A stretch of DNA of 64,000 bases, from contig NC_052159.1 of assembly GCF_902713615.1 (NCBI RefSeq), positions 20,348,018 to 20,412,017 of the forward strand, read 5' to 3'. Below, one piece after another: positions 8,298 to 59,500 of this stretch; the stretch's first letter is position 1, and each line of letters starts with the position of its first letter. The position numbers were made by a program, and so were the translations under genes. Source of the stretch: Scyliorhinus canicula (taxonomy: Eukaryota). The notes under the pieces were generated by a model, which saw nothing but the letters and a program-made list of their open reading frames with translations, did not search any database and was not told where the DNA came from.

Positions 8298-8853
8298 CAG
8301 GTAAGGACGGCAGATTTCCTCCCGAAAGGACATCAGTGAACCAGCTGGATTATTAATTATGAGAATTTCATGGCCACCATTACTGAGGCCAGCTTTCAGA
8401 TCCAGGCTTTATTAATTGACTTTAAATTCCACCAGTTGCTGTGGTGGAATTGGAACCTGTCTGAACTTTGGGCATTAGCCTGGGCCTCGGGATTACTAGT
8501 CAAGTGACATTTAGGGGAGCTGATGGCATAGTGGTACTGTCACTGGGTTAGTAATCCAGAGACCCAGGGTAATGCTCCAGGTACCTGGCTTCAAATCCCA
8601 CCATGGCAGATGGTGGAATTTGAAATCAATAAAAATCTGGAATTGAATTCAGTAAAATCTAGAATTAAAAGTCCAATGAAAACACTGTTGAGTCATCAGG
8701 TTCACTAAAGAAATCTGCTGCCCTTACCTGGGCTACCCTACATGTCACTCCAGCCCCCAGCACACATAGCAATGTGGTTGACTTTTAAATGCTCTCTTAA
8801 AGTGAGCACAGTAAGAGGTCTTACAACACCAGGTTAAAGTCCAACATGTTTGT

Positions 8854-8900
8854 TTCAAACACTAGCTTTCGGAGCACTGCTCCTTCCTCAGGTGAATGAA
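8854..8900 (-). ncRNA. Minimal hammerhead ribozyme motif (mirror copy)
   Basis: Reverse complement of the 9795-9841 motif. Confidence 0.72.
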
Positions 8901-9794
8901 GGGGTATGTTCCAGAAACATATATATAGACAAATTCAAAGATGCCAGACAATGCTTAGGATGCGAACATTTGCAAGTAATTGAATCTTTACAGATCCAGA
9001 TATAGGGGTTGCCCCGGGTTAAAGAGGTGTGAATTGTCTCAAGCCAGGACAGTTGGTAGGATTTTGCAAGCCCAGGCCAGATGGTGGGGGATGAATGTAA
9101 TGCAACATGAATCCCAGGTCCCGGTTGAGGCCGTACTCATGTGTGCGGAACTTGGCTATAAGTTTCTGCATTGTCGCGCGTCCTGAAGGCCGCCTTGGAG
9201 AACCCTTACCCGGAGATCAGAGGCTGAATGTCCTTGACTGCTGAAGTGTTCCTGCCTGGTGATTGTCTCGTGATGTCCGTTCATTCATTGTCGCAGCGTT
9301 TGCATGGTCTCACCAATGTACCATGCTTCAGCACATCCTTTCCATTGGCGAGACCATGCAGACGCTGTGACAATGAATGAACGGACATCACGCGACAATC
9401 ACCGGGCAGGAATGTTCCCTTCCAGTCGGGGAACACTTCAGCAGTCAAGGGCATTCAGCCTCTGATCTCCGGGTAAGCGTTCTCCAAGGCGGCCTTCAGG
9501 ACGCACGACAACGCAGAATCGCTGAGCAGAAACTTATAGCCAAGTTCCGCACACATGAGTACAGCCTCAACCGGGACCTGGGATTCATGTCGCATTACAT
9601 TCATCCCCCACCATCTGGCCTGGGTTTGCAAAATCCTACCAACTGTCCTGGCTTGAGACAATTCACGCCTCTTTAACCTGGGGTAACCCCTCTCTCTGGA
9701 TCTGTAAAGATTCAATTACCTGCAAATGCTCGCATTCTAAGCATTGTCTGGCATCTTTGAATTTGTCTGTATATATGTTTCTGGAACAAACCTC

Positions 9795-9841
9795 TTCATT
9801 CACCTGAGGAAGGAGCAGTGCTCCGAAAGCTAGTGTTTGAA
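9795..9841 (+). ncRNA. Minimal type-I hammerhead ribozyme motif (Penelope-associated)
   Basis: ttcattcac CTGAGGA a ggagc-agt-gctcc GAAA GCTA gtgtttgaa: CUGANGA/GAAA core, stems I and II, palindromic AGCU stem III. Confidence 0.75.
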
Positions 9842-9994
9842 ACAAACATGTCCCATGCCGGCATCTCCACATCATGGCCTCTTAAAGTGAGACACTGAGC
9901 TCAAGGGGCAATTATGGATGGGCAACAAATGCTGGCCTTGCCAGTGATGCCCACATCGCAGGAAGAAACAAATGCAGCTCAATACAGGTTTTGG

Positions 9995-26955: not shown

Positions 26956-28852
26956 GTCAGCACGGCTTTGCCAAAAGTTAGTCATGTCTATTCGAGTTCT
27001 TTGACGAGGAAACAAGGAAGTTAGACAAAGGAGAACCAGTGGACGTGATTTATTTAGATTGCCAGAAGGCCTTTGACAAGGTGCTGCATAGGAGACTGCT
27101 AAATAAATTAAGAGCCCATGGTGTTAAGGATAAAATCCCAGCATGGATAGAGGATTGGCTGACTGGCAGAAGGCAGAGAGTGGGGATAAAGGGGTCTTTT
27201 TCAGGATGGCAGCCGATGACTAGTGGTGTGCCTCAAGGATCTGTGCCGGGACCACAACTTTTCACAATATACATTAATGATCTGGAAGAAGGAACTGAAG
27301 GCACTGTTGCTAAGTTTGCAGATGATACAAAGATCTGTAGAGGGACAGGTAGTATTGAGGAAGCAGGGGGGCTGCAGAAGGATTTGGACAGGCTAGGAGA
27401 GTGAGCAAAGAAGTGGCAGATGAAATACAATATGTGAGGTTATGCACTTTAGAAGGAGGAATGGAAGCATAGGCTATTTTCTAAATGGGGGAATCCTTAG
27501 GAAATCAGAAGCACAAAGCGACTTGTGAGTCCTTGTTCACGATTCTCTTACGGTTAACGTGCAGGTTCAGTCGGCAGTTCGGAAGGCAAATGCAATGTTA
27601 GCATTCATGTTGAAAGGGCTAGAATACAAGACCAGGGTGTACTTCTGACGCTGTATAAGGCTCTGGTCAGACCCCAATTGGAGTATTGTGAGCAGTTTTG
27701 GCCCCGTATCTAAGGATGGATGTACTGGCCTTGGAAATGGTCCAGTGGAGGTTCACAAGAATGATCTCTGGAATGAAGAGCTTCTCATATGAGGAACGGT
27801 TGAGAACTCTGGGTCTGTACTCGTTGGAGATTAGAAGGATATGGGGGGATCTTATTGAAACTTACAGGATACTGCGAGGCCTGGATAGAGTGGATGTGGA
27901 GAGGATGTTTCCACTTGTAGGAAAAACCAGAAGCAGAGGACACAATCTCAGACTAAAGGGACGATCCTTTAAAACAGAGATGAGGAGGAATTTTTTCAGC
28001 CAGAGGGTGGTGAATCTGTGGAACTCTTTGCCACAGAAGGCTGTGGAGGCCAAATCACTGAGTGTCTTTAAGCCAGAGATAGATAGGTTCTCGATTAATA
28101 AGGGGATCAGGGGTTGTGGGGAGAAGTCAGGAGAACGGGGATGAGAAAAATATCAGCCATAATTGAATGGCGGACCAGACTCAATGGGCCGAGTGGCCTA
28201 ATTCTGCTGCTATGTCTTATGGTCATATGGTATTTCAGGAAGTTTGGAAGATTAAGACAACCCCTCCAACAATCTCTGCTTCCACTCCACCTAGCAACCT
28301 GGTCGCCCAGGTAACGTATTCATTCTGATCCAGCCTTTCCTCTATGTATTTACATTGTGTTTTTATTGTATGCCCTATTTTAGGGAACGTTGTGTCTGGA
28401 CTGACCGCAGAACAATACTTTTCACTGTACCTCTGTACACGTGACAATAAACCCAAATCCAATGTGTCCTGTCCGCCATTATCACCCCATTCATTAGCTC
28501 TGCCATCTCAGCTGCTACCAATACTTTGTCAGCATCCTCTTCCTTAATTATAGGCATGATGTGGAGATTCCGGCATTGGACTGGGGTGGGCACAGTAAGA
28601 AGGCTATCGTCCAACAGGTTTATTTGGAATCACTAGCTTTCAGAGCGCAGCTCCTTCATCAGATCCATCACAGGTTTCCCCCTGGTTGTATTTCCTCTCA
28701 TCCCATTATTTATAGGCCAGTAGGTATTGGGTTCTCTTTTATGTTGTATTTCATCCTATTCTCAGATTCTCTTTCTCAGCCTTGATTTTCCTCTTCACTT
28801 CCCCTCTCAATTTGGCTTGGTTCTTGCTAAATAATTCACCTCCCTTATGTTT

Positions 28853-36559: not shown

Positions 36560-37508
36560 TGTAGCCATGCTGGCCACGCAAAATGGACACTGAGCCAAAC
36601 TAAAATGGAAGGCTGCTGGGAAACAGACAGTTCAGCCAGAACAGCAGTCTGCAAAGAGCAGTTTGCATTCTGCAGCAGCAGAAACCAGTTTGGGCTCAGG
36701 TGAAAAGACCTTAGCTAGGTGCAAATGGCAAAACGCTTTGCATGCTAATGAGGCCATCAGACTTGAACACCCACACAATAGATACATTTGGTTCTGAATG
36801 GACACATTCCAATCAAGACCCAGACATCGAGGCACCAGAAACCTCCGAACAAAAGGACATAAGAAACGCCCCCTCCATCACGGAGACCCCCTCGCATTGG
36901 GGAATTAATCCAGTATCGATAAGAAATTGATCCAATAGGTAGAGCCCGCCCGAGAAGAGGGAAGGACAACGGAACCCCTATAAAAGATAGGGACCTCGTG
37001 TTGTCCGGTCTGTTAAACCCGTGCTCCGGCTCCGACTGACACCTGGTATCCTGACTCCAGCCGTTGAGCACCAGCCGCCGAAACCGTAAGTTCAACGCTC
37101 GCTACGCGATCCAAGCCCACTAGACTCCCAAGTGCCAGAACGCTTGCTGAAGGCTGCAGACAAAACCAGGACGAAGGCCTCGTTCTCTGACCTTGCCTGT
37201 TCCTGTTAGATAAGTATTCTGTTTGCTTATGTTTAGTTGTAGCTTAGTCTCTTAGTGTGTGCATGAGTATTTATTATTAACTGTATAATAAATATTGATC
37301 GTTTGAACTTGACTAATCGGTGTATCGTCTTTATTACTTTGAACTTGACCTTGGAATACTTGTGACGTTGCCTATACGGCAACTGGCGACTCCAGAGCTA
37401 AATAATTACATAGAACAGAGCCTAGCAGTGTTAAGCACACGTCGAACTCGGAGGCGTGTTAATACACTCCAATAAACGCGTTTTACGCCCATAGTAAAAC
37501 GTGCAACA
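36560..37508 (+). repeat. 5' LTR (949 bp)
   Basis: Starts TGTAGCC, ends GCAACA; CCAAT 36932, TATAAAA 36979-36985, splice donor GTAAGT 37086, AATAAA 37287 and 37471; no visible difference from 45428-46376. Confidence 0.97.
36932..36985 (+). promoter_or_regulatory. LTR U3 promoter (CCAAT box plus TATA box)
   Basis: CCAAT at 36932-36936 and CCCTATAAAAG with typical LTR spacing. Confidence 0.7.
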
Positions 37509-37513
37509 TTTAG

Positions 37514-37531
37514 TGGCGACTCCGCCGGGAC
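37514..37531 (+). other. Primer-binding site complementary to tRNA-Arg(UCU) 3' end
   Basis: TGGCGACTCCGCCGGGAC lies 5 nt after the LTR; its reverse complement GTCCCGGCGGAGTCG-CCA matches the vertebrate tRNA-Arg-TCT 3' end as I recall it. Confidence 0.85.
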
Positions 37532-37826
37532 CCTGTTGTAAGTGGAAACACCACAGTGTCCAGGACCCTGAAATTTGAATTAGAACTCCAAATTGCAGAG
37601 AAAGAAAGAGATCACAAGTATTCAAGGTGTTCAAAATAATAAGCGAAATTCGGAAGTGTGTTTAGTGCATGCGTACTAACAGGGCTGTAAGGTAAAACTG
37701 AAAGCTTTTTGTTGCGACAAACTTTCGGTAGTTTTGTGATCGGAAAATAGCGTAAGCCGTACCCTTTTTTCGAAACACCACCCCAGCAACCCCCTGTTCC
37801 AAATTATACAAAGAGAGTCAGAGGAA

Positions 37827-39575
37827 ATGGCCATGCAGGCAATGGAACGTCTGATGGATCCAGCAAAGTTTGTGGTCGCAGCGACCAGCAGCAGTAGCAG
37901 AGTAGGCCAGTGTCCCACGTGGGAGCTGGAACTCCGCAAATATCTGCAGGGAAAGGGATGGCCCCTTTGGAAAGAGTTTTGTGCAAATGAGGAGACAGGT
38001 CCCGGGAGTATAGGTCATACTTGGTGGGAGAACCTCTCTCAAATACACAAAAAGAGTTTAGGTAAAGCACGCAAGCCGATGGCGATTGTGTCCTGCTTGG
38101 CACAGTTGCGAGGCGCAGAGGAGGTCATCAGGACGCTCCGGGCAGATTTAGAGGAAAGGAACCGAATGAGTAAGGTCGATGTCAGGGACATCGAGAAAGA
38201 AAACCTGGATCTTAAAGGGAAGTTGGCAGAGAAGGGTAGAGAGGTGGATGATGCCAAGAGGGCTCACCAGTCTTGTCTAGCTCATCTGAACAGTTCCCAG
38301 ACCCAGTATGAGAAAGCCTATCAGGACGTGCAACGTGCCGTTCTGATAAGACAGGAATCGGAAAAGCAGGTGGAGGCATTGCAGAGGCAATGTTCCGATC
38401 TCAAAGCAGCTTTGAGAGCACTCCACGCTGCAACGACCGAACAAAGACAAAGCACAGTTGACCACGCGAAATGCAGGAAACAGATTGCGGAACTGCAATC
38501 TCTGCTTTCGGTGCAGAATGGCTTCCAAAGCACCTTTGGAGCACAGTTAGATGGAGAAAACGCCCCAGATTGGCAGGAATTAAGCGAGACAGCGCAGCGT
38601 TATGTTCAGGGAACATGTGCGCCCGCAGCTCAGCAGAAACGACAGGCACCCCAACCCCCCACAGCTCAGATCATAACCGCACCCATGAATCCCGTAACCA
38701 CACAGAGGAAAGCCGAATCAGAAGGCGCCCCAGACATAACTTACACCACCCCTTTAACAGTAACCCAGCTAAGGGACGCTTGTGAAAAGATCACTCCGTT
38801 CCTCCCCACCGCAGACCCCCACCAGTTTTTCGCTAAAGTAAAACAGCAGGCTACCATGTACGGCCTGGATGAGAGAGAGCAGGTTAAGCTCACCGTGCTG
38901 AGCTTAGACCAGAGTGTAGTGGCAGCCCTCCCCGACCCACAAAACGTGGCAGGAGGCAGCCTAGAGGAGATGCACACTGCCATTTTAGATGCCATCGGGT
39001 ACAATAGAGGTGACCCCGTAGAAGGATTGAATAAGTGCAGGCAGAAGAGATCCGAACACCCCACAGCATTCGCAGGAAGGCTGTGGATTCATTTCAGCGC
39101 AGTTTTCGGACAGTTAGATAGAGCGCATTTAACCCGCGAAAACATGGTTAAGTGGACGCGCACAATTATCTCACACGCAACAGAAGCAGGACAGAGCGCT
39201 TGCAATAGTTACGACCCCTCAGAAGAGGCCCATAACGAAAAATGGGTCCTGAAAAGATTGTCCCGCGCTTGGGAGCAATCGCTTCAGGCAAAAGGAAAGG
39301 TTAGATCCCCAGAAGAGGCTCAGGCTGCTGCAGATATCCAAGCAGTCAGAGAGCACCAGAAGCCCGCATGGGTAAATGAAGGCAAGAGCAGCCCTCAACA
39401 GAAAGGACAGGAATGCTATAACTGTGGACAGTTAGGGCATTGGGCAAAAGAGTGTAATGCACCCCAGCGATCTCAGAGAGGCCAGCAGACAGGCACTCTG
39501 AACCGCAACAAAGCAAAACCCATCCACAATGTAGCAGTACAGTCAGGACCCACCAATGTGGACGAGACGAACTGA
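37827..39575 (+). CDS. gag: Gag polyprotein (coiled-coil N-terminal region, capsid, one CCHC knuckle), 582 aa
   Basis: Long ORF after the PBS; MHR-like QKRSEHPTAFAGRL; zinc knuckle CYNCGQLGHWAKEC. Confidence 0.93.
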   Translation: MAMQAMERLMDPAKFVVAATSSSSRVGQCPTWELELRKYLQGKGWPLWKEFCANEETGPGSIGHTWWENLSQIHKKSLGKARKPMAIVSCLAQLRGAEEVIRTLRADLEERNRMSKVDVRDIEKENLDLKGKLAEKGREVDDAKRAHQSCLAHLNSSQTQYEKAYQDVQRAVLIRQESEKQVEALQRQCSDLKAALRALHAATTEQRQSTVDHAKCRKQIAELQSLLSVQNGFQSTFGAQLDGENAPDWQELSETAQRYVQGTCAPAAQQKRQAPQPPTAQIITAPMNPVTTQRKAESEGAPDITYTTPLTVTQLRDACEKITPFLPTADPHQFFAKVKQQATMYGLDEREQVKLTVLSLDQSVVAALPDPQNVAGGSLEEMHTAILDAIGYNRGDPVEGLNKCRQKRSEHPTAFAGRLWIHFSAVFGQLDRAHLTRENMVKWTRTIISHATEAGQSACNSYDPSEEAHNEKWVLKRLSRAWEQSLQAKGKVRSPEEAQAAADIQAVREHQKPAWVNEGKSSPQQKGQECYNCGQLGHWAKECNAPQRSQRGQQTGTLNRNKAKPIHNVAVQSGPTNVDETN

Positions 39576-42500
39576 CGGTGTTCGGGCTCCCCCACTTGGG
39601 TCTGTGACACACTATGGGACTCATCAGGGAGGCCCGTAGTCACGGCAAAAGTCAAAGGGAAGCCCATAGAGTTACTGTGGGACACAGGAGGATCCCGCAC
39701 CACCATTAACTCCACAACCACGGCACACGCAGACACGTGGCCGACCACCTCCACCATCACACTTAGCGGGTTCACCGGACACTCGCAGCAGGGACATATC
39801 ACAGCACCCGTAGCGATCCAGCTAGGGAACATTTCCACAAGACACCCCGTAGTTTTAGTAAATCTTCCCCGGACAGCAGAGCACATCCTGGGGATAGATT
39901 TTATGAACGCTCATAGCTTGTCGTTCGACCCAGTGAACCAGTGTGTCTGGCGAATGGCAAGATCAGACAGAGCCCCAGCCACCCTCACAGTAGGAGACTA
40001 CGCTAATCGGATTAGCGCAGTGGGAGAGTACTCATTCGACCTGACTACGCTCCACACCGACAGACAAATTAAGGCCCTACTAAACAAACACAGGACAGCA
40101 TTTGCAAGTCACCGTCATGACTGTGGCAGAATGACTGGACAAGTTCATGTTACCGGACAGGACCCCCGACCGCAAAAGCAGTATAGATTTCCCCTCGAGG
40201 CAGAGGTGGAAATAGAAAAAGTTATAGGCAGCTTGTTGGACCAAGGTGTACTGAGAACGGTAGCCTCCACCAACAATGCCCCTATTTGGCCAGTGAGGAA
40301 GCCCGATGGATCATGGCGTCTGACCATCGATTATCGGGAACTCAACAAAGTAACCCCCGCAGTAGCCCCAACGGTAGCTACTAGTCCCGAGACCATGCTC
40401 AAGCAGGGTCTCAACGCCAAGTACTTCACGGTATTGGACATCAGTAATGGATTCTGGTCAATACCATTGGCAAAAGCGTGCCAATACAAATTCGCATTCA
40501 CTTTTAAAACACAGCAGTACACGTGGACATGCCTCCCACAAGGATTCCACAATTCACCCTCCATTTTCCACCGACAGCTGGCAAGTGGATTAGAGAAATT
40601 TTCCCGACCCGAATGTCTGGTACAGTATGTAGACGACCTACTACTGCAGACAGACACAAAGGCAGAGCACATTTCGCTTCTGGCCGAACTCCTGGAACTC
40701 TTAACTGAAATTGGCTGTAAAGTTAACCCGAAAAAGGCCCAAATATTGGAAAGTAAAGTGATGTATTTGGGAACAGTCATCACGCACGGCAAACGCGAGA
40801 TCGAATTCAAAAGAATTGATTCGATCGTCAAATTGCCCCTTCCCCAGAATGTATCAGCCCTCCGGTCGTTTTTAGGACTGGTTGGCTATTGTCGGAACCA
40901 CATCGACGGATTCGCGACAAAAGCCGCCCCACTTTCAGACCTCCTTAAGAAAGGAGCCCCCTGGGAATGGCTTCCGCAGCATACAGGCGCTGTGGAAGAG
41001 TTGAAACGAGCCCTTAGTGCAGCACCCGCGCTGCTAGTCCCCGACCCACTTTCCCCTTTCGCAATAGAGGTAGCGAGCACCGATCTGACCCTCTCGGCCG
41101 TGTTGCTTCAGGAACGGCACGAGCAGCTAAGACCAGTGGCTTATGCCTCCCGACTGTTAGACCCGGTAGAACAAGGATTTTCAGCCTGTGAGAGGCACCT
41201 CCTTGCTGTCTTCTGGGCAGTTCAGTATTTCTCATACATCACCGGACTCAACCCCATTACTATTCTGACCGAACACACACCCACACAGCTACTACTAGAC
41301 GGTCGACTGAAGGACGGTTCAGTTAGCCAGATTAGGGCAGCTAGGTGGACCCTACTTTTACAAGGACGGGACATTACAGTGAAACGGACACGCACACACA
41401 CATACTTAGCAGACAACCTCCAATACCCCGGACAGCCCCATGACTGTGAAATTGTAGCTCCCCTGCATAACACAGGACCCTTTTTAGCAAAAACACCCCC
41501 CAGGAAGATAGGGAACCCGAAACAAAGCCCCCAGCCCACAGACACGTGTGGACCCTTGAGGATTTATGTAGACGGTTCCTCCAGTTTTAAATGGTGAGCG
41601 TATCACAGGATGCGGCATCTATGTAGAGGACGCGCAGGGGCGCGCTCTCGAAGAGATAGCTCTTAAGTTACCAGGTCACTTAGGCGCGCAGGCAGCAGAG
41701 CTAGCAGCCATAGCGTACATAGTGGACCACCCCGATTCTTTCCCCAGCCCAGCAGACATATATTCAGACAGCTTATATGTCTGCAATAGCCTAACAGATT
41801 TTCTGCCCCTGTGGAGGACACGAGGTTTTGTCTCCGCAGACGGGAAACCCCTTCCATCAGCCCCTCTACTCCAGCATATTTTAGCAAAAGCGAAGGACAG
41901 GACCTTCGGCATTATAAAAGTAAGAAGCCACCATAGGTCATCACCCCCTGGGAATGTAAAAGCCGACGCATTGGCTAAGGCAGGTTCCAGGAGAGGACAC
42001 TTATGGACCCCCCCAGCTAGCGCACCAGCTAGCGCCCCTGTGAGCGCAGTCCAAGTCTCACAGACTGATATTAAAGATCTCGTGGCAGCACAGAAACAGG
42101 ACGGAGACCTCAGGGAGGTTTTCAAGGGAAACTTTGTGCCTGCGTACGAGCACTTTAAACACGCACTGACCACACATGAGGGTGTGATCATTAAGGACCA
42201 ACTTTATGTGGTCCCACAGCAGGACAGGAATCAGATGATTGCCTTGTTCCATGACGGCCACGGGCATCAGGGAATTGATGCAACAACGAGGCACCTCAGG
42301 CAACTCTGTTGGTGGCCTAATCTCAGGAATGATGTAACGCACTACATAGAGAATTGCCTGATTTGTGCTCAGAATAACCCGGAGCGGTATTCTAAGAAAG
42401 CACAACTTCGGCATACTCGCCCAGTTAACGGCCCTTGGACAAACCTCCAGATCGACTTTATAGGTCCATTGCCCCCTTGTAGGAATGGCTATAAATACGT

Positions 42501-43800
42501 TCTGGTGGTGATAGATACCTTTACCAAGTGGGTAGAGGCATTTCCCTCACGAACAAACACAGCTAAGACAGCTGCAAAGATCCTGACCCACCACATCTTC
42601 ACGAGATGGGGTTTACCCCGAAGTATCGATTCGGACCAGGGATCTCACTTTACAGGACGGGTCATGAGGAACGTCCTGACAATATTCGGAATCAAACAGA
42701 ACTTCCACATTGCGTATCATCCACAGTCCAGCGGGATTGTGGAGCGCATGAATCGGACCCTAAAAACTACCCTCAGGAAAATGGTTCAAGAGAACAATTC
42801 CACATGGGATTCAGTGCTCCCATTTGCACTTATGTTCATAAGGAACACTGTCTCCACATCGACAGGATACACACCACACACACTCATGACCGGACGCCCT
42901 ATGAAAGGTACAGAATTCCTTTTAGGACTGGACATGACAAGCCCCGAAGTGACGGCCCTCACACATGAAAAGGCAGTTAAAGATCTAGTTGAGACTGTGA
43001 GGTCTGCACAGCTCGCAGCCGCAGTCCAGCTAGGGAAACGCCGACAGCAACGGACTGCCTGTTTCAATAAGACCGTACACACCACAGAATTCCAGGTTGG
43101 GCAACAGGTAATGTTATCTGTTTATAACCCCAGCAGTTTTTTGGCTCCAAAATATTCCGGTCCCTACTCAATTTCGGACAAAATTAGCCCCTCCGTTTAC
43201 AGGATAAAGTATCCTAATGGGAAGACCGCGTGGTTCCATATAAACCAGTTAAAGGCATATGGAACACAGGCCAACCATGCTCACCATGTCCTGCTGGATG
43301 CAGCAGAACACTTCACCCCGCCCACCAGAGACACTTTTCCACCATCCCCCTCACAGACCAGTTCATCCACGGACTCGCCCACGACTCCGCCCACAGACCA
43401 CTACAGACCACGCCCCGACACGCCCACAAGCTGCCACAGCAGAGACAGTAGGACTGACACTGACTCTGAAGACAGCGACACCACACAGCCATACAGCCCA
43501 CACTGCACCAACTACGACCCCGACTCCAGTGACCCCATGGAAGTCACCTACCTCAAATATCCAGAACCACCACCCGACCCCGACTACCCCGACAACACAC
43601 TCGACGCTACACAATGGCACAGGGACAATTCCTACAGACTTGTCCGCAATGACGAGAGTGACCCCCGGTCACACAATTCCAAAATTGCATGCCTGATCCA
43701 CACAAGGGTGTGGGATCCGGGAGAGCAGGATGACACGGTGTCTGACTCCCGACACGGCAACCCCTTTGTGACCCTGTTCACAGAGGCAGAATCAAAGTGA
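39576..43800 (+). CDS. pol: Pro-Pol: protease, RT, RNase H-like tether, RNase H, integrase; in frame with gag via UGA readthrough; one frameshift near 41583
   Basis: Open from the gag stop; LWDTGG (39681) and HILGIDF protease motifs; LPQGF and YVDD (40626); degenerate RH (IEVAS, ERHLLAV, LTEH); second RH YVDGS...AQAAELAA...YSDS...GNVKADALA; HHCC, D-D(35)E and GPY integrase motifs. Confidence 0.93.
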
Positions 43801-44739
43801 GGTGTCCAGATGATGTAAGATAGGAATCGTTTGAGGGAAACGATGTCCTTTCTGATGGAACCTGCACGTATGTTTGTCTTCGTTTTATGTTTGTTTGTTC
43901 TCAGGTTTGTACATTGTTCAGCTGGAGGATGGACATCTTCTTTTCAGCTGAAAAGATTGTGACCACCTCACATGCACGTTAGTTTGTCCGCAGATACCTT
44001 TGAGAACTTCGGTTGGATTGGAGATCTTTTCCAAAGTTGTAAGGCCACACGCCAAATAGTTTATCTGCAGATATCTCTGAGAACTTCAGTGATGTCCTCA
44101 GTTGGAGCATCTTGGCTCCCTTGGTTTTTTAGGTGCCCCTCTATTCGGCGAAATAGAGGCTGCAAGTCATGGTAAACACATTCGTACCCGTTTTTTCCAG
44201 GTTACTCAGGCAGTGGACAAACGGCACTGAGGACCCGCCCTGTCTGAGAACCAACCCTTGGTCAGCCAAGCTCGGGTATGGCACAGCACGCCCTACCCGG
44301 GGATCCCATCCAACTCGTACCCGTAGCGGCCCATACGCAACTCATTCGGATGTTTATTTCCAAGTTTGTTTTCATTTTACGTTAGGTAGCCCTTCGGCCA
44401 CCATCCCACATGCTATTTACATCCGGGAACATTCGGATGGTAAATCAGCAAAGCCTGCGAGACGGCTCGCAGAAGGAAGGATTGTTAGGTGTATGCTGGT
44501 CTTTAAATTCGCTTTTTGAAAAAAAAAAAAATGAGGGGAGTCACAGGGGGTGACTTAGCCAGTCATTTTAAAGGGTCAATTGGGTTTTGAAAGACAGATG
44601 CACTAACAAGTAAAGGTCTTAAACTGTGTATTGACAGATACTGTGCTTGATCCCAAAGGTTTCAAAGGACGAGACAGAGGTCGAAGCCAGGATTGTCAAT
44701 ACCGGAGGAAGAAGGAAGAGAAAGAAGAAGAACAGCAAA

Positions 44740-45096
44740 ATGATGGAAGCCCACTTATTACTGTTCAATGTCATATGTATATGTGTGGAAACAAGACACG
44801 TTTCCCCCACAACCCCCACCGTAAATGTTTCCATTACAGCAAACCCCCAGTGCTCAGCTCTGATCAGCGAGGTTCAGACCTGGTGTACTAAATTCATGAC
44901 GTGGTACTCCATGTCCTACATAATCGAATCACTGTTGGTGATCGCGATCCTCATCATCCTAGTGCAGACCCTCAGGTTGAGGAAATGGAAGAGGAGAGCC
45001 TCTCGTTCCAGCACCTCACCCATCTATAGAGTGCAATCCCCCATCTTCGGATTCCACCAAACCCCTCAACCCCTCACTGATTACAACACTCTGTAA
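44740..45096 (+). CDS. Small type-I membrane protein in the env position (118 aa; FAST-like architecture, function unproven)
   Basis: AAAATGATGG start context; hydrophobic N-terminus, NVS sequon, C-SALISEVQTW-C loop, TM IIESLLVIAILIILVQTL, RLRKWKRR, terminal YNTL. Confidence 0.72.
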   Translation: MMEAHLLLFNVICICVETRHVSPTTPTVNVSITANPQCSALISEVQTWCTKFMTWYSMSYIIESLLVIAILIILVQTLRLRKWKRRASRSSTSPIYRVQSPIFGFHQTPQPLTDYNTL

Positions 45097-45417
45097 ATAA
45101 AATTCAGCCATGTATTATATTGTTCCATACTCGACTGCCGAGTTGGGAAGTGTGATGTTGTGGTGTGAATGGTTAAGATTTTAGAGTGATTAAATGTTTA
45201 AGTTAAGGTTAAGGTTAATAGTGATAGGTAGAGGTTCCCAATTGTAGTAATGCATGTCCCCTTTGACATAGGGCCAAGTAGAAATGTTAGTTAAAATTTT
45301 TTTTTCTCTTCTTCCCATAGTTTAGAACAGAGTAGAACAGGAACTGGCAAGAGGTCAGAACACAAGGAGGCAAAGTACATAGGTGATCCTTCACAATAGT
45401 ATGATTGTGAGGATCAC

Positions 45418-45427
45418 AAGGAGGGAA
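45418..45427 (+). other. Polypurine tract
   Basis: AAGGAGGGAA directly abutting the 3' LTR. Confidence 0.85.
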
Positions 45428-46376
45428 TGTAGCCATGCTGGCCACGCAAAATGGACACTGAGCCAAACTAAAATGGAAGGCTGCTGGGAAACAGACAGTT
45501 CAGCCAGAACAGCAGTCTGCAAAGAGCAGTTTGCATTCTGCAGCAGCAGAAACCAGTTTGGGCTCAGGTGAAAAGACCTTAGCTAGGTGCAAATGGCAAA
45601 ACGCTTTGCATGCTAATGAGGCCATCAGACTTGAACACCCACACAATAGATACATTTGGTTCTGAATGGACACATTCCAATCAAGACCCAGACATCGAGG
45701 CACCAGAAACCTCCGAACAAAAGGACATAAGAAACGCCCCCTCCATCACGGAGACCCCCTCGCATTGGGGAATTAATCCAGTATCGATAAGAAATTGATC
45801 CAATAGGTAGAGCCCGCCCGAGAAGAGGGAAGGACAACGGAACCCCTATAAAAGATAGGGACCTCGTGTTGTCCGGTCTGTTAAACCCGTGCTCCGGCTC
45901 CGACTGACACCTGGTATCCTGACTCCAGCCGTTGAGCACCAGCCGCCGAAACCGTAAGTTCAACGCTCGCTACGCGATCCAAGCCCACTAGACTCCCAAG
46001 TGCCAGAACGCTTGCTGAAGGCTGCAGACAAAACCAGGACGAAGGCCTCGTTCTCTGACCTTGCCTGTTCCTGTTAGATAAGTATTCTGTTTGCTTATGT
46101 TTAGTTGTAGCTTAGTCTCTTAGTGTGTGCATGAGTATTTATTATTAACTGTATAATAAATATTGATCGTTTGAACTTGACTAATCGGTGTATCGTCTTT
46201 ATTACTTTGAACTTGACCTTGGAATACTTGTGACGTTGCCTATACGGCAACTGGCGACTCCAGAGCTAAATAATTACATAGAACAGAGCCTAGCAGTGTT
46301 AAGCACACGTCGAACTCGGAGGCGTGTTAATACACTCCAATAAACGCGTTTTACGCCCATAGTAAAACGTGCAACA
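45428..46376 (+). repeat. 3' LTR (949 bp)
   Basis: Copy of 36560-37508; followed by TSD CTCC. Confidence 0.97.
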
Positions 46377-47564: not shown

Positions 47565-50500
47565 CTAAAAGAAAAACAAGTTTTAAACAAAGATTATTTC
47601 AAATTAACAAAAACATTTTGAAATAATTATTTCCTCATTAATAATTCTTCTCCCTCATCTTATGCTTCATATTAGTTAAAGTAGCCTCAAGTGTCCTGAA
47701 CTGGGACCGGGGGCAAGTCACGGTTGTGATGCCTAGGAAGTTGGAACATGCCAGCTGACCAGTCTCAATGATGAATGATCACCATTGGCCAATTACCGGA
47801 TGCCCACTTGGGTAGCGATGAGCCACAGGGGCATTTAAACGAGAACTCCGACCTCAAAATGGATCAGGCCACTTCACCTTGAAATGAGCAGGCTGACGGT
47901 AACTCCAACCGTTACACCTCGTTATCAGCGTTAATTCACTTTTCATATCGACTTGGAACTTACTGACATTAGCTGTTGGGCAAGATTACTTCAGACATTT
48001 CACTGATAAATTCAAAAACATCTCCTGCCCAGGAGGGCCTTTTACAATTGGTCTGAAGCTGCTTTGGTAGATCGGGCTGATAATTTGGCTGACATATTCC
48101 ATGGATTCATTTCCAGCTGGCTGCTAATCATCTCTGTATGGATTAATTCCTCATGCTAGATTCCAATCGCTAGTGCTCAAACCAGAGTAGAAAAGACTTG
48201 GTATTGATTGACACAAGGCCAAAAAGTGGCAAGCCGTTGATTTAGTTCAAGAAGCATATGTGTCTTTCCAAAGTTCATATCCAGCCAGTTTGATACAGAC
48301 CATCTAATAAGTCATCTAAATCCATGGCCATGGGATGTGAACGGTGCCATCCCTAATTACCCTTGAACTGATTAACTTGCTCGGCCATTTCAGAGGCCAG
48401 TAAGAGACAACAACATTCCGGTGGTAGTAGCGACGCTGAAAATCCAGAGGCAGTTGCACCAGTACTTTAGGCTGGGGACGGGGTTCAAGAGAAATGCCAA
48501 TTCGGGGGAATCATAGATTTGAGCCAGGGAAGTGGGATGGGAATTTTCAGAGATGGGAGGAGAAGGGAGTCAGGGCAATAAAGGATTTGTTTCTGCGGGG
48601 CCAGTTTGTGGGACTGGAGGAGCTGGGGGCGCAATATGGGTTGGGGCAGGAGAAATGTTTAGGTATATGCAGGTCCGAGATTTCGTAAGTAGGAGATACA
48701 GAGCTTTCCGGTGGCGCCGGACCCCCAACCTGTTGGAGGAGGTGCTGACGACAGGGGGAATAGAGAAGGGGGTGGTGTCGGCGATTTATGGGGCGGTTCT
48801 GGGAGAAGAGAAGGCACCGCTGGAGGGGATTGACAAAGTGGGAGGAAGAGTTGGGAGAGGGCATGGAAGAGGGGTTGCGCGTGAGGTGCTTCGGAGGGCG
48901 AATGCTTCAACTTTGTGTGATACAGCTGAAGGTGGTGTACAGGGCACACCTCACAAAGGCAAGGGTCAGCCGACTCTGTGAGGAGATAGAGGATGTTTGG
49001 AAACGTTGTGGCGGGTGGGGAGCGAGAGAGAGGAGCCCGCAAATCACGTTCATATGTTTTGGTCCTGTCCGAAGCTGGAGGGGTATTGGAGGGAGGTCTT
49101 CAGCGTAATTTCAAAGGTGGTACATATGAAGCTTGAACCGGGTCCTCTGAAAGTCATATTCGGGGTATCAGATGAGCCAGGGTTGGAAGCGGGTGCGGAG
49201 GCACATGTTTTAGCCTTTGCCTCACTGATGGCCCAAAGGTGGGTCCTGCTGGGGTGGAGGTCAGTTTCTCCACCCTGTGCCCTTGTGTGGCTATCTATTG
49301 GAGTTTTCAACACTCGAGAAAGTGAAGTTTGAGTTGAGGGGAAGGATGGAAGGGTTCTATAATTCATGGGCTTTGTTTATTATGCACTTTCAGGAGTTGG
49401 ACGGCATCAAACACTGGGGCCCCAGAGGAAACTGGTTTGCACTGTGAATGTTGTTGGTGACTATGTATGGGGTGATGGTGGATTCCTGATTCCTTTTCTT
49501 TGATGTTTGTATTTAAAATGTTGAGGGTTGTTTGGGGGTTGGTGGGAGGAAGGGATTGTTGGCCAGGGGATTGGCATTATATTTGTTGCCGGTGATTGTT
49601 TGTTGTTGGGTGTAAATTAGAATGAAAATGTGAAAAAGGAGAATAAAAGTATATATTTTTTAAAAAGAGTCAACAACATTACACTGGGTCAGATGTAGCT
49701 GGACCAGGTAAGGATGGCAGGTATCCTTCCCTAAAGGATATCAGTGAACCAGATGGGTTTTTACAACAATTGATGATACTTTCATGGCCACCCTGACTGA
49801 GACTAGCTTTCAATTCCAGATTTTTATTAATTTGAGCTCATGTCCCCAGGGGATTAGCCAGGGCCTCTGGATCACTAGTTTCAAAAGAATAGACAGTTTC
49901 ATAAAATCTCTACAGTGCAGAAGGAGGCCATTCTGCACCGACACTCTGAAAGAGCGCCTACTTAGCCCACTGGCCCTACCCTTTCCACAAGTCAGTGTTG
50001 AGAAAAGAGGCAAGTAAGGAGAATCAGAAGATCAATTAGAACATAGAACATAGAACAGTACAGCACAGGACAGGCCCTTCGGCCCTCGATGTTGTGCCGA
50101 CCAATGATCACTCTACTCAAACCCACGTATCCACCCTATACCCTTAACCCAAGAACACCCCCCCTTAACCTTACTTTTTAGGACACTACGGGCAATTTAG
50201 CATGGCCAATCCACCTGACCCGCACATCTTTGGACTGTGGGAGGAAACCGGAGCACCCGGAGGAAACCCACGCACACACGGGGAGGACGTGCAGACTCCT
50301 CACAGACAGTCTATTAAATTGGGATCAAACAAACCGTTTCGGTCTGAAATTATTAAACTAGATTAGATTAGTATGGCGAGGAATGTTTAATATTTAAATC
50401 ACAGAATTGTTATGGCGCAGAAGGAGGCCATTTAGCCCATCGTGTTTTCCCAGCTCTCCGAACGAATATCATGACTTTGTGCTATTTCCCTGCCTTTTTT

Positions 50501-53500: not shown

Positions 53501-56500
53501 CATGCTGCACATTATTATCTTGATGAAACATGTAAATAATCTCTTCCCAGGACACCACCAGTGCAGTAAAAGCACTTTACATTTTTCTATAGGCACAACC
53601 AGAGAGAGGGAACTTCCTTGCGGCAGTATTTTCCTGTCACCACACCAAATCAACACTGTTGGGAGGGTGTTAAGCTGCTTCTAGAACCCAGGAAGGAATC
53701 CAGCTCCATATATTTGGGTGTCAGTAGAGACTTATTGAAAGCTCAGCAGCCCCCTCAAAAAAATGGAAGTTTCTAGTGTCATCAACTCTGAAAGTCAGTG
53801 CCTTTATGTTAAAGAGGGTTGTCAACAGTGAGATCTCCATGTGCCTGTTGCCCATGGTACGGCTTGCAGCTAAAAGGCTTCCTGACCAGTTGTTAAGAGG
53901 AACTTAACATCAATCCAAGGCAATACCGTTTGCTTTTCTTTAGTTAATTGTGAGATACAATAGAAGCATGATAGGGACTGAGAATGTAATGTGTGAGTAA
54001 TGAGAAGTGCAAACCCATGTCCTTCCCCAAAATATAAAACAATAGCAAACCATTGTTTTTTTAAAAAGCGAAAATAAAAGACAACAAAGTTTTATACAAA
54101 ATAAATTCAGAAAACTATGCTACTATTAGTTATTAACTCACCTGAATGCAAAACCCTCATAGTTCTTCTTACGTGCAACAAAAAGCCACCTTTGATGTAA
54201 AAGCTACAGAAAACCGTAGGGTGAGTTTCAACACTAAACAAAAATTAAAATAAAATGTAATCACTATAATTTAATAAAACAAAATAAAAAGCACCTAAAC
54301 TAAAAAAGAAAGTACTTCTTGGCCCACGGTTTTTGTGAATGATGCATCACATGTTCTAGCTCCAGGTTTCTACATGTTTGTGCAGCCTTATTTCAAAGCC
54401 AATGTCAAAGCAACACTGTCAGTCATGTTTCGCAACAGTTCATTAGTCTCAGACATTTTAAAATAGGCAGCATCATAGTGAAGAAGCTAAATTGACAAAT
54501 GTTGTATTCAGGTCTGATGAAATATGGATGTAAACACAGCATTTTTAAGCCCAGAGAAAACACCATCTTACATTTGGTTTGTTAAGTAAACATTCAAAGA
54601 AGATATAAATAAAGGTAGCAAATGACCACTTTGTATTCCTTGCTATCAGATAGGCTCCTCCTTCCACAAACATTCAAACCCTCCACCACCGATGAACTGT
54701 GGCAGCCGTGTGGACCATCTGCAAGATGCACTGCAGTAACTCACCAAGGTTCCTTAGGCAGCACCTTCTAAACCCACGACCACTGCCATCTAGAAGGACA
54801 AGAGCAGCAGATACATGGGAACCCCACCACCCAAAATCTTGGAACTCCCTCCCTAACAGCACAGTGGGTGTACCTACAGCAGTTCAAGAAAGCAATTCAT
54901 CACCACCTTCTGAAGGGCGACTAGGATGGGCAATAAATGTGGCCTAACCAGCGACACCCATATCCCGTAAATTAATTTTTAGAAAAGATAACAGGAACTT
55001 GTTTATGATATTTCTGGACACTTTGATCTTCATCGTATATCATTTCATTCAACTCCATTAATTAAAATTAAAATGCTGTTGAAGACTTTGTGTGAAGCTT
55101 GAACCTACTCTGCTGCAGAGAAGCTAATGTTATTACGATTTTAAGCTCGTCGTGACAGAAAGATGAAGAAGAATTGAAAATATACTAAGACATTTTGCAG
55201 TTTCAGATGTCCAGAACTCTTTCAAAAACAGAAAATGCTGGAAATACTCAGCAGGTCAGTCAGCATCTGTGGAGAGAAACATAGCGTTAACATTTCAGGT
55301 CAATAACCTTTCTTCAGAACAAAACAGATGAAAGGTTATTGACCTAGAGATTAAATCTATTTATCTCTCAACAGATGCTGCCTGACCGGCTGAGAATTCT
55401 TTTCTTATTTCAGATTTCCACAGTATTTTGCTTTTGCTCTACTCATTTTAACATGGAAACCCCAGGAATCAATTTCCCTTATCTTTGCTTCTGGAGAACA
55501 CTGATTTTGAGAATGCTTGGATTAGAAAGACAGCTGAAACTGCTTTCACTTATAAATACTATACCGTTTCATTTAATTAAAAAATATATATTTTCCTGAT
55601 AAACCCTCATAGCTTCCCCTTGCTGTTCTAAAATATTTTCCTATTTTCTCCTTTATCTCGTTGTAGTCCTCATAAGTCAACATCCGTCAGAAACAGTTGC
55701 ACTCTTCCTCAAACCTGTTCAGATAGATTGAAAGCAAGCAATCTGAACTTGAGCAATAAATGCGGTTAACAGAAACGAAAGAGAAAATGCTGGAAAATCT
55801 CAGCAGGTCTGGCAGCATCTGTAGGGAGAGGAAAGAGCTAACATTTCAAGTCCAATGACTCTTTGTCAAAGCTTTGACAAAGAGTCTTTGGACTCGAAAC
55901 ATTAGCTCTTTCCTCTCCCTACAGATGCTGCCAGACCTGCTGAGATTTTCCAGCATTTTCAAACCATAGATCTGAGCCAGGGAAGTGTGATGGAAATGTT
56001 CAGAGGCGGGAGAAAGGAATTAGGACACTAAAAGATTTGTTTCTTGGGGGTCGTTTTGCGGGATTGAAGGAGCTGGGAGCGAAGTATGGGCAGGAGCAGG
56101 GGGAAATATTTAGATACATGCAGGTTCGAGACTTTGCCAAAAAGGAGATACAGAGCTTCCCAATAGAGCCGGCTTCCACATTGCTGGAGGCGGTGCCGAC
56201 GACAGGGAGACTGGAGAAGGGGGTAGTATCGGCGGTTTACGGGGCTATTTTGGAGGAGTTGGCGCTGTTGGAAGGGATCAAGGCAAAGTGGGAGGAAGAG
56301 TTGGGAGAGGGTATGGAGGAGGGGTTCTGGTGTGAGGTGCTTCGGAGGGTGAATGCCTCCACCTCGTGTGCGAGGTTGGGGCTTATACAGCTGAAGGCGG
56401 TGTATAGAGCACACCTTATAGGGGTGGCGAGGATGAGCCTGCTCTTTGAGGGGGTAGAAGGTGTGTGTGAACGTTGCGGGGGAGGCCCCGCAATCCACGT

Positions 56501-59500
56501 TCATATGTTTTGGTCCTTTCCAAAGCTGGAGGATTACTGGAAGGAGGTGTTTAGGGCAATCTCTAAAGTGGTGCACGTGAAACTGGACCGGGGCCTCGGG
56601 AGATCATATGCAGGGTGTCGGACTAGCCGGAGTAGGAAATGGGCGGGGAGGCAGATGTTGTAGCCTTTGCCTCGTTGATCGTCCAAAGGCGGATCCTGTT
56701 AGGGTGGAGATCAACCTCTCCACCCTGTGCCCTGGCATGGCAGGAATTCTTAACGCTTGAAAAGGTCAAATTTAAACTGAGGGGAAAGATGGAGGGGGTC
56801 TACAATTCTTGGGCGTTATTCATTATGCACTTTAGCGAATTGGATCACATCAAGCATTAGGGGGTTTGGGGCTGGGAGGGTTGGGGGGAGGGGGACTGTA
56901 TGTGTTAATGGTGACTATGGGTGATTCCTGATTCCTTTTTGTCATTTGTTTATGTCAACATGCGGGCTAATGTTTGGGGGTTTGATGGGAGGATGGGATC
57001 CTGGTTATTGATATGGGGATTGACATTACATTCGTTACTGATTATTGTTGGGTGTAAATTTGGGAGAAAATGTGAAAAAGGAGAATAAAAAATATATATT
57101 TTTTTAAATTACACCCTGCGATCCTGACGAGTAGTTGTAGAATCACAGATCATCTACAGCACAGAAGGAGGCCATTTGGCCAGTTCACTGCAAGAGCAAT
57201 TCAGCGAGTCTCTCTTTCCTGACGTTTCCTCAGGGCCATCAAATTTTTTGGCCTTCGGTTGCTTATCCAATTCCCTTTTGAAAGCCATGATTGAATCTGC
57301 ATCCACCAGTCTTTCAAGCAGTGCATTCCAGATCCTAACCACGCACAGAGTTAAAAAAAAAAAATTTCAAGGGTCGCTTTGAATTCTTTTGCCAGTCACC
57401 TTATATCTGTATCCTCTGGTTCTCGCCCCTTTTGCCAATGGAGCAGTTTCTTTCCATATACTCTGTTCAGATCCCTCATGATTTTGAACACCTCTGATCA
57501 AATTTCTTCTCAATCTTTCCTTCTCGAAAGATAACAACCTTGGCTTCTCCAGTCTATCCACATGCCTCTTAAACCTCCACTTTATGTTGTGCATAGAATT
57601 GGATACTGTCCGTCAATTGAGGTTGAATCAGTGTTTTATAATGATTCATCACACCTTCCTTGCTTTTGTACTCTACACCTAGAGTTATAAAAGGCCAGGA
57701 TTTAGTGTGACATATATCCAGGTCTCTCTCTGTTGCTGCACCCATTTTAGAATTGTACTCTTTAATTATATTGCCTCTCCTCATTCTTCCTGCCAAAATG
57801 TATTCCCTCGCGTGTCATCTTTTGTTTACACCATCTTCCAGCATCATGTTCTCTTATTGTTTCATTTTAACTGCCAAACCTCCCAATGTAATCATTATCC
57901 TTTATTCAGTAATATGCTTATTTATTTGATGCAATTTTACAGTTCTTCTGTAGAATAAAAAAACAGCCAGAACCAAAATTAATAAGAGCAATACGTTGGT
58001 ACAAATATAATTTACTTGTAGAACATCCACAAATGTATCAAGACAGGGAAAACATTCTTACCATCCATAGGAGGCCGTTCTAACATGTCAACAGGTCGAC
58101 CGTGTATTACAAATATTTCAACACGGGGAAACAATGTTGACAATCCTTGAGAATCCAGATAGTCCTGTAAAAGACAGTGTACTTTACGGGCTGTGAAAAG
58201 GAGACAATTTTGCAATAATACAGCAATAACACCCCTTCAGAAAGTGCTTCATGTCCCAGGAGTACAATTGTTTTTTATAATTGTAGTACCTATAAATTCT
58301 TTCCAAATAGCGTCTTTACTGCAGATAAACTTCTCAAAATCACTTCATATACCTTCCATTAATATCACCAGTGTATCAGAGCTGTAACTTGAAGTACTGT
58401 AATGCAAATAGTTTTCAACCAACCAATGTATATCTAGATAGAAACAATATAGCATACCATACTACAGTTAATTAGAGTCTTAAAAGATGATAAAGCACAT
58501 CACCTCCAACTGTGGAACAGGATCTGGCAGGTGCTCCAGATATTGTTTAATTCGTTCAACATAATCTACACCTGTATGAGAATGAAAGAACAATTTGAAA
58601 AACAACCCAAGCATGTTGTTGAATTCTAATATATCATTACTACACCCTGAATAAGTATTTAAATGTAAAGTATCGCTTCCAAGTTAAATGTTTTTGGGGC
58701 TTATTCAGCCCCCATTCTTTATTATTAGTACATATGAACATACAAAAAAGGAGCAGGAGTAGGCCGCTCGAGCCTGCTCCGCCATTCAATAAGATAATAG
58801 TTAATCTATTTGCATTGTGTATTCTACATTCGCATCTAACTTAACAACCCTACCCCTTCCCTGAAGCCTCACATATGTTCCTTGGACAACGAACACCCAA
58901 CTAGTCATCATTTACTCGTGAGCTTCATGCGGCATGTTGTCAGAATATGGAACAAGCCTCTGTCTATGTCCGCATTCACATGGTTCCAACAGAGTTCATT
59001 TGATAAGGATCAGGCTTGGAAATCCTCACCAATTTTCCCTCCTTCTATCATGGACACTGAGATCAACGGAAACATACTGATCACTCTTGCTCCCTGGATG
59101 AGATCAGCTAACTGAGCACACCACACTTTTACTTTGAAGTTTTAAAAAAGTATTGTTTCCTTTAGGTTTCTCTCCAATGTTCATCGAAGATGGCAGAAAT
59201 GTAACCTGGGACCCAGACCACTGCCAATGCAATACCAATACTATTGACTGCAAGGAAAGGTAGAAGAGCACTGCGGGTTAATGCAAATTACTGTTTACCT
59301 TATTTTATTCTCCGGAACGTGACTCACTTCTGTTGAACTGAGCACGGTTTTCTGCTCGTGTGTTTGCCCACTACCCCCGCCCCCGCCCCCTTGGCAAGAA
59401 AATCACAAGCTAGTGAACACCAATATGGAGAAATACATGTGGAAAACCCCAGTCATTATTTATTCTCCCTCCTTCTTAACTGAGTTTACTATAGAAAACA

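Follow-up and report, generated by a model that had tools for sequence, protein, structure and literature searches.

A conserved small membrane-protein gene in the env position of a young endogenous retrovirus family of the catshark Scyliorhinus canicula

The 64,000-nt stretch of the Scyliorhinus canicula genome analysed here (the window; contig NC_052159.1) holds a young, 9.8-kb provirus (36560–46376), which carries a 118-aa ORF in the position of env. This small ORF is a real gene under strong purifying selection, with the membrane core of its product constrained to nearly the level of gag. The element belongs to a large, young and recently active family, with thousands of candidate copies in the catshark genome.

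A small gene under purifying selection

The ORF is encoded exactly as the first-pass annotation had it, and the TM helix (19-mer hydropathy peak 2.3–2.5), the NVS sequon, the cysteine pair C38-x10-C49, the RLRKWKRR run and the YNTL end then listed are all present in the window copy. It is the sole sense-strand ATG ORF of at least 40 aa in the element with a TM-like stretch. When the 1.6 kb in which it lies were base-shuffled, any 100-aa ORF arose in 117 of 2000 trials, and one with both a TM stretch and a basic run in none of 2000. A second ATG ORF, of 116 aa (44169–44519), had been passed over in the first description; we dropped it as a gene, since all forward frames of a 130-nt block within it are interrupted by stops, each in 47–52 of 65 copies.

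Sixty further loci were fetched, 20 picked by diverged gag and 40 by a diverged homologue of the ORF. The ORF was found in 54 of these, including 14 of the 20 gag-chosen loci; the six loci without it were truncated, interrupted or out of range. At one gag-selected locus, L019, the small ORF is missing while the flanks on both sides are intact. The frame was intact from Met to stop in 42 of the 54, and the other 12 were dropped from the analysis. From an older subfamily, 33–42% identical to the window ORF, 16 loci were fetched, of which nine were intact and seven were dropped. In subfamilies down to 33% protein identity, the ORF keeps its position and a size of 106–138 aa.

Pairwise Nei–Gojobori comparisons between three subfamily groups (the pairs not being independent) gave a dN/dS of 0.16 for the membrane core, residues 47–112 (codon bootstrap 0.09–0.23), 0.26 for the whole ORF, 0.38 for the stalk and 0.5 for the signal, as against 1.13 and 2.94 in the shifted frames and 1.25, 0.29 and 2.99 in the antisense frames. 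The 40 ORF-chosen loci bias these values downward, but the 13 gag-chosen copies are free of that bias, and they gave 0.07–0.18 for the ORF core, 0.06–0.13 for gag and 0.05–0.14 for RT. In comparisons with the oldest subfamily, where synonymous sites have reached saturation, the uncorrected pN/pS is 0.30. Across intact family copies the ORF is thus neither disrupted nor neutral, as a core dN/dS of 0.16 attests.

The provirus, its relatives and the absence of env

Features of the provirus and of its small ORF (window coordinates)
Feature	Position	Strand	Basis or remark
5′ LTR	36560–37508	+	949 nt, TG...CA; identity to 3′ LTR
TATA-like TATAAAA in 5′ LTR	36979	+	motif read from sequence
Donor-like GTAAGT	37086	+	putative; motif read from sequence
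Primer binding site	37514–37530	+	TGG-starting tract 5 nt after LTR
gag	37827–39575	+	582 aa; no Gly2, coiled-coil-like N-half, one CCHC knuckle
pro-RT-tether-RNaseH-integrase pol	39576–43800	+	SnRV-like RT
Candidate RNA element, conserved non-coding block	44200–44480	+	column identity per 40-nt bin
Splice-acceptor-like motif	44630–44658	+	exon would begin at 44659, with an 81-nt purine-rich leader before the ATG
Small membrane ORF	44740–45096	+	118 aa; ORF translation
Signal-peptide-like N-terminus, aa 1–19	44740–44796	+	fast-evolving but hydrophobic
Ser/Thr/Pro-rich stalk with N-glycan sequon, aa 20–46	44797–44877	+	per-copy counts
Aromatic membrane-proximal helix and TM helix, aa 47–78	44878–44973	+	per-position counts
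Cytoplasmic tail	44974–45096	+	polybasic run, conserved Tyr, P-x-F-G-like motif; YNTL end subfamily-specific
3′ LTR	45428–46376	+	polypurine tract precedes it

The two LTRs are identical at 949 of 949 bases and a 4-bp target duplication (CTCC) flanks the provirus. With the ORF protein as query the genome yielded 5330 candidates, the best 150 of which are all 100% identical to it and without stops; together with the identical LTRs, this bears out the earlier view of a recently active element. Two S. canicula gene models agree exactly with the genome analysed. Small-ORF homologues also occur in S. torazame, and in the older subfamily most LTR-like pairs are 88–91% alike, with one at 98%. Outside the provirus the window consists mostly of dispersed repeats, labelled by eye as SINE-like families and LINE-like fragments (for example 27692–28144, 48523–48981 and 55944–56663), and holds a 326-nt inverted pair (8844–9169 and 9526–9851).

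The primer binding site we take to be that of tRNA-Arg. gag, which matches S. torazame proteins at 71–78%, ends in a TGA in frame with protease and RT, and Gag-Pol would be expressed by readthrough of this stop; among 32 matches to a coelacanth pol query, 27 have exactly one TGA, three have none and two have more stops. pol encodes RT, a tether, a second RNase H and an integrase; in the window copy a single frameshift breaks it where the second RNase H begins. Two further observations concern these genes: in the leader (37669–37697) a short upstream ATG and then a donor-like AAG/GTAAAA precede gag and might add a leader exon, and the integrase (43280–43800) has a long Pro/Thr/Asp-rich C-terminal extension, the terminal motif of which is kept in diverged copies.

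Judged by its SnRV-like RT motifs and gag-pol layout, the element belongs with the SnRV clade. In a comparison by eye with the RT rows printed in the PMC7947760 supplement, its RT motifs side with SnRV rather than with Loki or the foamy-like elements of fish. Among database pols, those of amphibians and the coelacanth come closest (53–58% over RT), and with them the window pol forms a clade (SH-aLRT 95) in a quick tree whose sequences do not include SnRV. With SnRV and the SnRV-clade ERVs CmiERV lineage I and Ovex1 the element has in common, besides the RT motifs, gag and pol in one frame across a stop, a tether and second RNase H, and a non-myristoylated coiled-coil Gag with a single CCHC zinc knuckle, although the stop is TGA in the catshark family and amber in SnRV. 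The clade trait it lacks is a full env gene: SnRV carries env and several accessory ORFs (of 52, 94, 76 and 205 aa; PMC12193657), whereas the catshark family has only the small membrane ORF. Since env occurs both in SnRV and, as a homologue, in an SnRV-like lineage described from the elephant shark (PMC4422223), it was probably lost in the catshark lineage.

Two other placements were rejected. Lokiretrovirus was rejected on RT motifs: printed Loki RTs differ at the LPQG-equivalent motif and at the motif after TIDYR (PMC7947760). The paramyxovirus F-like Env (PF00523), a Loki trait, is absent from the window element, and in a genome-wide search for it neither the targets nor the controls gave a signal. 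The foamy-like ERV-Spuma.0-Sca has another layout with a 1.3-kb env, and the element's motifs were not found in its supplements (PMC10699275). A search of viral contigs gave no match. A Pyxicephalus pol model (P0013) has in its last 140 aa, after integrase, what look by eye like a hydrophobic stretch and an Ig-like segment (Pfam scored no Ig domain); this tail may come from an adjacent host exon or represent another non-env membrane gene of the SnRV clade.

Between the end of pol (43800) and the start of the 3′ LTR (45428) the longest stop-free frame, 153 codons, is the small ORF's own, and the statement that these 1.6 kb hold no env-sized ORF stands. At family matches the longest open frame was 322 codons (best 150 of 5169) or 313 codons (best 150 of 5223), and the gap from integrase end to ORF match is about 0.6–1.2 kb where both ends were located. 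A frog-RT query for an env-bearing SnRV-like sister gave, in the best 150 of 55,205 candidates, a uniform 57–58% identity, most with the family's 1408-codon pol frame. Thus no sister copy with a full env was found among the matches listed, although a rare one may exist elsewhere in the genome. The catshark genome does contain gamma-type env genes (78 matches), and 20 loci with such an env have distant pols (RT at most 35% to the window). Epsilon-like ERVs (L061–L065 and L077) have open env frames of 503–568 codons. The env-less retrotransposing ERVs IAP, MusD and ERV-L resemble the catshark family in env loss, in very high copy number and possibly in an RNA element after pol; we know of no conserved secretory-pathway membrane gene in env's place in any of them.

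Might the ORF then be a non-functional env remnant, or a chance ORF, that is passively carried? Its position, acceptor, signal peptide, aromatic stretch and TM are what an internal env deletion would leave, and env is present in the relatives named above (PMC12193657; PMC4422223). However, strong purifying selection refutes ‘non-functional’, the ORF is of equal size in all subfamilies, and no longer form occurs among the best 150 plus best 150 matches. Its profile matched no env gene of the 20 gamma-type loci, the one match being a neighbouring copy of the small-ORF family; as to likeness with an Env C-terminus (CX6CC, ISD, MPER-TM), neither these gamma-type envs nor the PDB gave a match. We therefore regard passive carriage as extremely unlikely; the gene may have an env origin with a later new function, or be a new gene.

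Expression signals, protein anatomy and comparison with known fusogens

An acceptor-like motif lies 28–110 nt upstream of the ATG in 47 of 52 copies, as opposed to one of 29 gag-pol windows, the motif having been defined from the same copies that were scored (five have an ATG in between). In two NCBI gene models, P0007 and P0009, each at its own locus, the exact provirus match begins at the acceptor AG, which supports acceptor use as far as automated annotation goes. Contigs of four presumed-RNA runs cover all 30 bins with no joint into the acceptor listed, such contigs being unreliable for level or splicing. A longer protein of 204–213 aa was rejected, since the exact proviral match of the database gene models starts at the acceptor (two of four checked). 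Gene models P0007–P0009 also end in or run through the small-ORF exon. In S. torazame a HEPACAM2-like model (P0010, XP_072365112.1) joins host Ig domains to the TM and tail of the ORF; here the host may have put the proviral exon to use.

Upstream of the acceptor lies a non-coding block conserved across all subfamilies, with 59–82% column identity per 40-nt bin as against 20–25% at 44001–44120. It is made of repeated hairpin-like units, the predicted stems of which are invariant or one-sided with no real covariation, and it has no Rfam match. It is a candidate RNA export or packaging element.

The small protein reads as a type I single-pass membrane protein, its N-out/C-in orientation being suggested by the basic run and the sequon. 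Counted over 52 intact copies, the N-terminus has a hydrophobic h-region in 45 and, by a heuristic, a small-x-small cleavage-like site in 43. The stalk is hydrophilic and variable in length (S+T+P 58% in 43 copies), keeps its sequon in 49 of the 52 and has a hydrophobic patch in one. Constraint is tightest beyond it: C49, W55, E63 (a transmembrane Glu), L65, L66, K82 and W83 are invariant in 52/52, and the W-C-x5-W-Y-S membrane-proximal helix is conserved (mean hydrophobic moment 0.35 in 43 copies, with no control; helical in the model). A Cys at the TM end, possibly palmitoylated, is present in 49 of 52 copies and lost in the window's subfamily. In the tail the polybasic run occurs in all 52, a Tyr in 50 and the P-x-F-G-like motif in 46; a YxxQ (STAT3-like) motif was dropped, as it occurs in only 5 of 43 copies. 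The predicted structure (mean pLDDT 67, pTM 0.34) has a signal helix (2–19), a disordered stalk and one continuous helix (36–90), with no helix after residue 90, where pLDDT is about 50. The protein matched no Pfam family at the curated cut-off; a word-based homologue search and a PDB profile search returned nothing, as did BFVD at E 0.001, and Atlas leads scored 0.90 or lower.

The first-pass annotation had likened this protein to the FAST fusogens of reoviruses. With p10, p14 and p15 it does share its size (about 60–200 aa), an N-out/C-in single TM, a membrane-proximal region, the TM-end Cys and a polybasic motif, which by the definition of at least three K/R within 15 residues after the TM (bioRxiv 10.1101/2025.03.14.642691) is present in 52/52. 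By its defining features, however, it is not a FAST member, because it has no myristoylation motif (MGxxxS/T in 0/52) and starts with a putative signal peptide, whereas FAST proteins lack one and insert by a reverse signal anchor (PMC3952855). FAST proteins need a fusion peptide with a cystine loop (p10) or N-myristoylation (p14 and p15, as in most sORF2), neither of which is conserved here, and the model predicts no amphipathic helix in the endodomain. The proposed p10-like cystine loop fails as a family trait, its first Cys (C38) occurring in only six of 52 copies, all from the youngest subfamilies, and so does the YxxL tail motif (a C-terminal YxxL/YxxPhi end in 1/52). Nor was profile or structural likeness to FAST detected, with no FAST family of Pfam hit by any of 38 members up to E 0.5 and no BFVD match at E 0.001, a weak test given that FASTs diverge freely. 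FAST ectodomains, as far as the accessible text describes them (PMC7830690), are also unlike the hydrophilic glycosylated stalk of variable length.

The first-pass annotation's mention of small FAST-like ORFs in env-less insect LTR elements proved correct: they are the sORF2 genes of the MDG1 group (Drosophila 412, Stalker2), further candidates being listed in the supplements of the same preprint (bioRxiv 10.1101/2025.03.14.642691). In both systems an env-less LTR element encodes a single small protein that is under selection, spans the membrane once and has a polybasic patch after the TM; the ectodomain stretch that is amphipathic in sORF2 may be so in the catshark protein too. In contrast to sORF2, which belongs to Metaviridae, lies upstream of gag on unspliced RNA, has 63–107 aa and is often myristoylated, the catshark gene belongs to Retroviridae, occupies the env position behind a splice acceptor, and encodes a signal-like N-terminus and a sequon with no myristoylation motif. 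Our literature search, which did not extend to subscription journals or Repbase/Dfam, brought up no account of the catshark small ORF, nor of any vertebrate ERV with a FAST-like gene.

Possible roles of the small protein

Our tentative preference, held at somewhat less than even confidence, is that the protein acts as an Env substitute at the plasma membrane in cell-to-cell passage. Going by sequence features, it would be made from a spliced mRNA, enter the ER by its signal peptide, be N-glycosylated and be directed to the plasma membrane by the basic run next to the TM, and there it would probably self-associate via the invariant ectodomain Cys and a polar TM face. At the weakest step it would stand in for Env, passing capsids to a neighbour cell (for example from gonadal soma to germ cell); the aromatic membrane-proximal helix and the TM would do this work, not a cystine loop. 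In its action it would resemble insect sORF2 or FAST, though outside that family.

Because selection is seen between subfamilies, the gene appears to help the replicating element make new insertions; in purely intracellular elements env normally decays. The ORF is the element's only membrane-type ORF, with an env-type acceptor, and is most constrained in the membrane-proximal helix, the TM and the basic run, on which FAST and sORF2 also rely (PMC7830690; bioRxiv 10.1101/2025.03.14.642691). In p14 a membrane-proximal tribasic motif drives Golgi-to-surface export (PMC3952855), and for sORF2 Env-independent passage from soma to oocyte has been shown in fly ovaries (bioRxiv 10.1101/2025.03.14.642691). 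A direct cell-to-cell Env substitute fits because the build is surface-directed, there is no folded receptor-binding ectodomain and constraint lies at the membrane. [quoted passage not shown] On the other side, the SnRV reporter was expressed in oocytes themselves (PMC12193657), so that a step from soma to germline may be unnecessary. Against an Env substitute stand the lack of any fusion-peptide candidate (loop Cys 6/52, myristoylation 0/52, stalk patch 1/52), the failure of searches in Pfam, PDB, BFVD and Atlas to link the protein with FAST or Env families, and locus L019 without the ORF.

Nearly as likely, though likewise short of an even chance, is an accessory host-manipulating protein. 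Its invariant Glu would pair it with a membrane protein of the host, and its tail Tyr would signal or reroute cargo. DAP10/DAP12-type adaptors have a like layout of signal peptide, short ectodomain with Cys, acidic TM residue, basic run and Tyr, and functional analogues would be Vpu, papillomavirus E5 and M2-type viroporins. E63 and C49 (52/52) and the tail Tyr (50/52) are kept, a signal peptide and sequon suit an ordinary type I glycoprotein, and SnRV has several accessory ORFs (PMC12193657). Weak leads point the same way, namely K1 and adenovirus E3A (E about 0.1, below cut-off), TMEM156 (33 of 38 members, best E 0.0006) and M2 (0.84–0.87), yet all family matches fall below curated cut-offs or under 0.9. 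Gag-strength constraint with no arms-race change in the core also speaks against this role, as do the absence of an ITAM and the rarity of YxxQ (5/43).

Gag without Gly2 and the conserved tail motif raise another possibility: an assembly or budding scaffold without fusion, the tail recruiting non-myristoylated Gag to the surface or an internal membrane and insertions arising in the same cell or via a borrowed ERV Env, for which the genome offers epsilon-like ERVs whose env frames stay open over about 563 aa. However, SnRV Gag is likewise presumed non-myristoylated (PMC2717909) and yet forms C-type particles (PMC12193657), and the invariant ectodomain Cys, Trp and sequon are not obviously required; we rate a scaffold as clearly improbable. 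The boldest form of the preferred Env-substitute reading, a vertebrate retrovirus lineage long without Env that spread to thousands of copies by a signal-peptide glycoprotein of about 100 residues, a new minimal fusogen class passing capsids directly into the germline, strikes us as rather unlikely, if conceivable.

Env-less ERVs are assumed to copy within one cell and to need no membrane protein. That a large, long-lived env-less family keeps a membrane gene at gag-level selection therefore points to an undescribed membrane step, or host manipulation, in its cycle. If cell-to-cell passage is true, the Env-independent infectivity shown in flies would also exist in Retroviridae, where the minimal fusogen would be built differently; if the accessory role is true, this would be a new retroviral accessory gene family that points to an antiviral or germline pathway of the shark. 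In both cases the gene, small and naturally intact, can be tested alone in a laboratory shark model.
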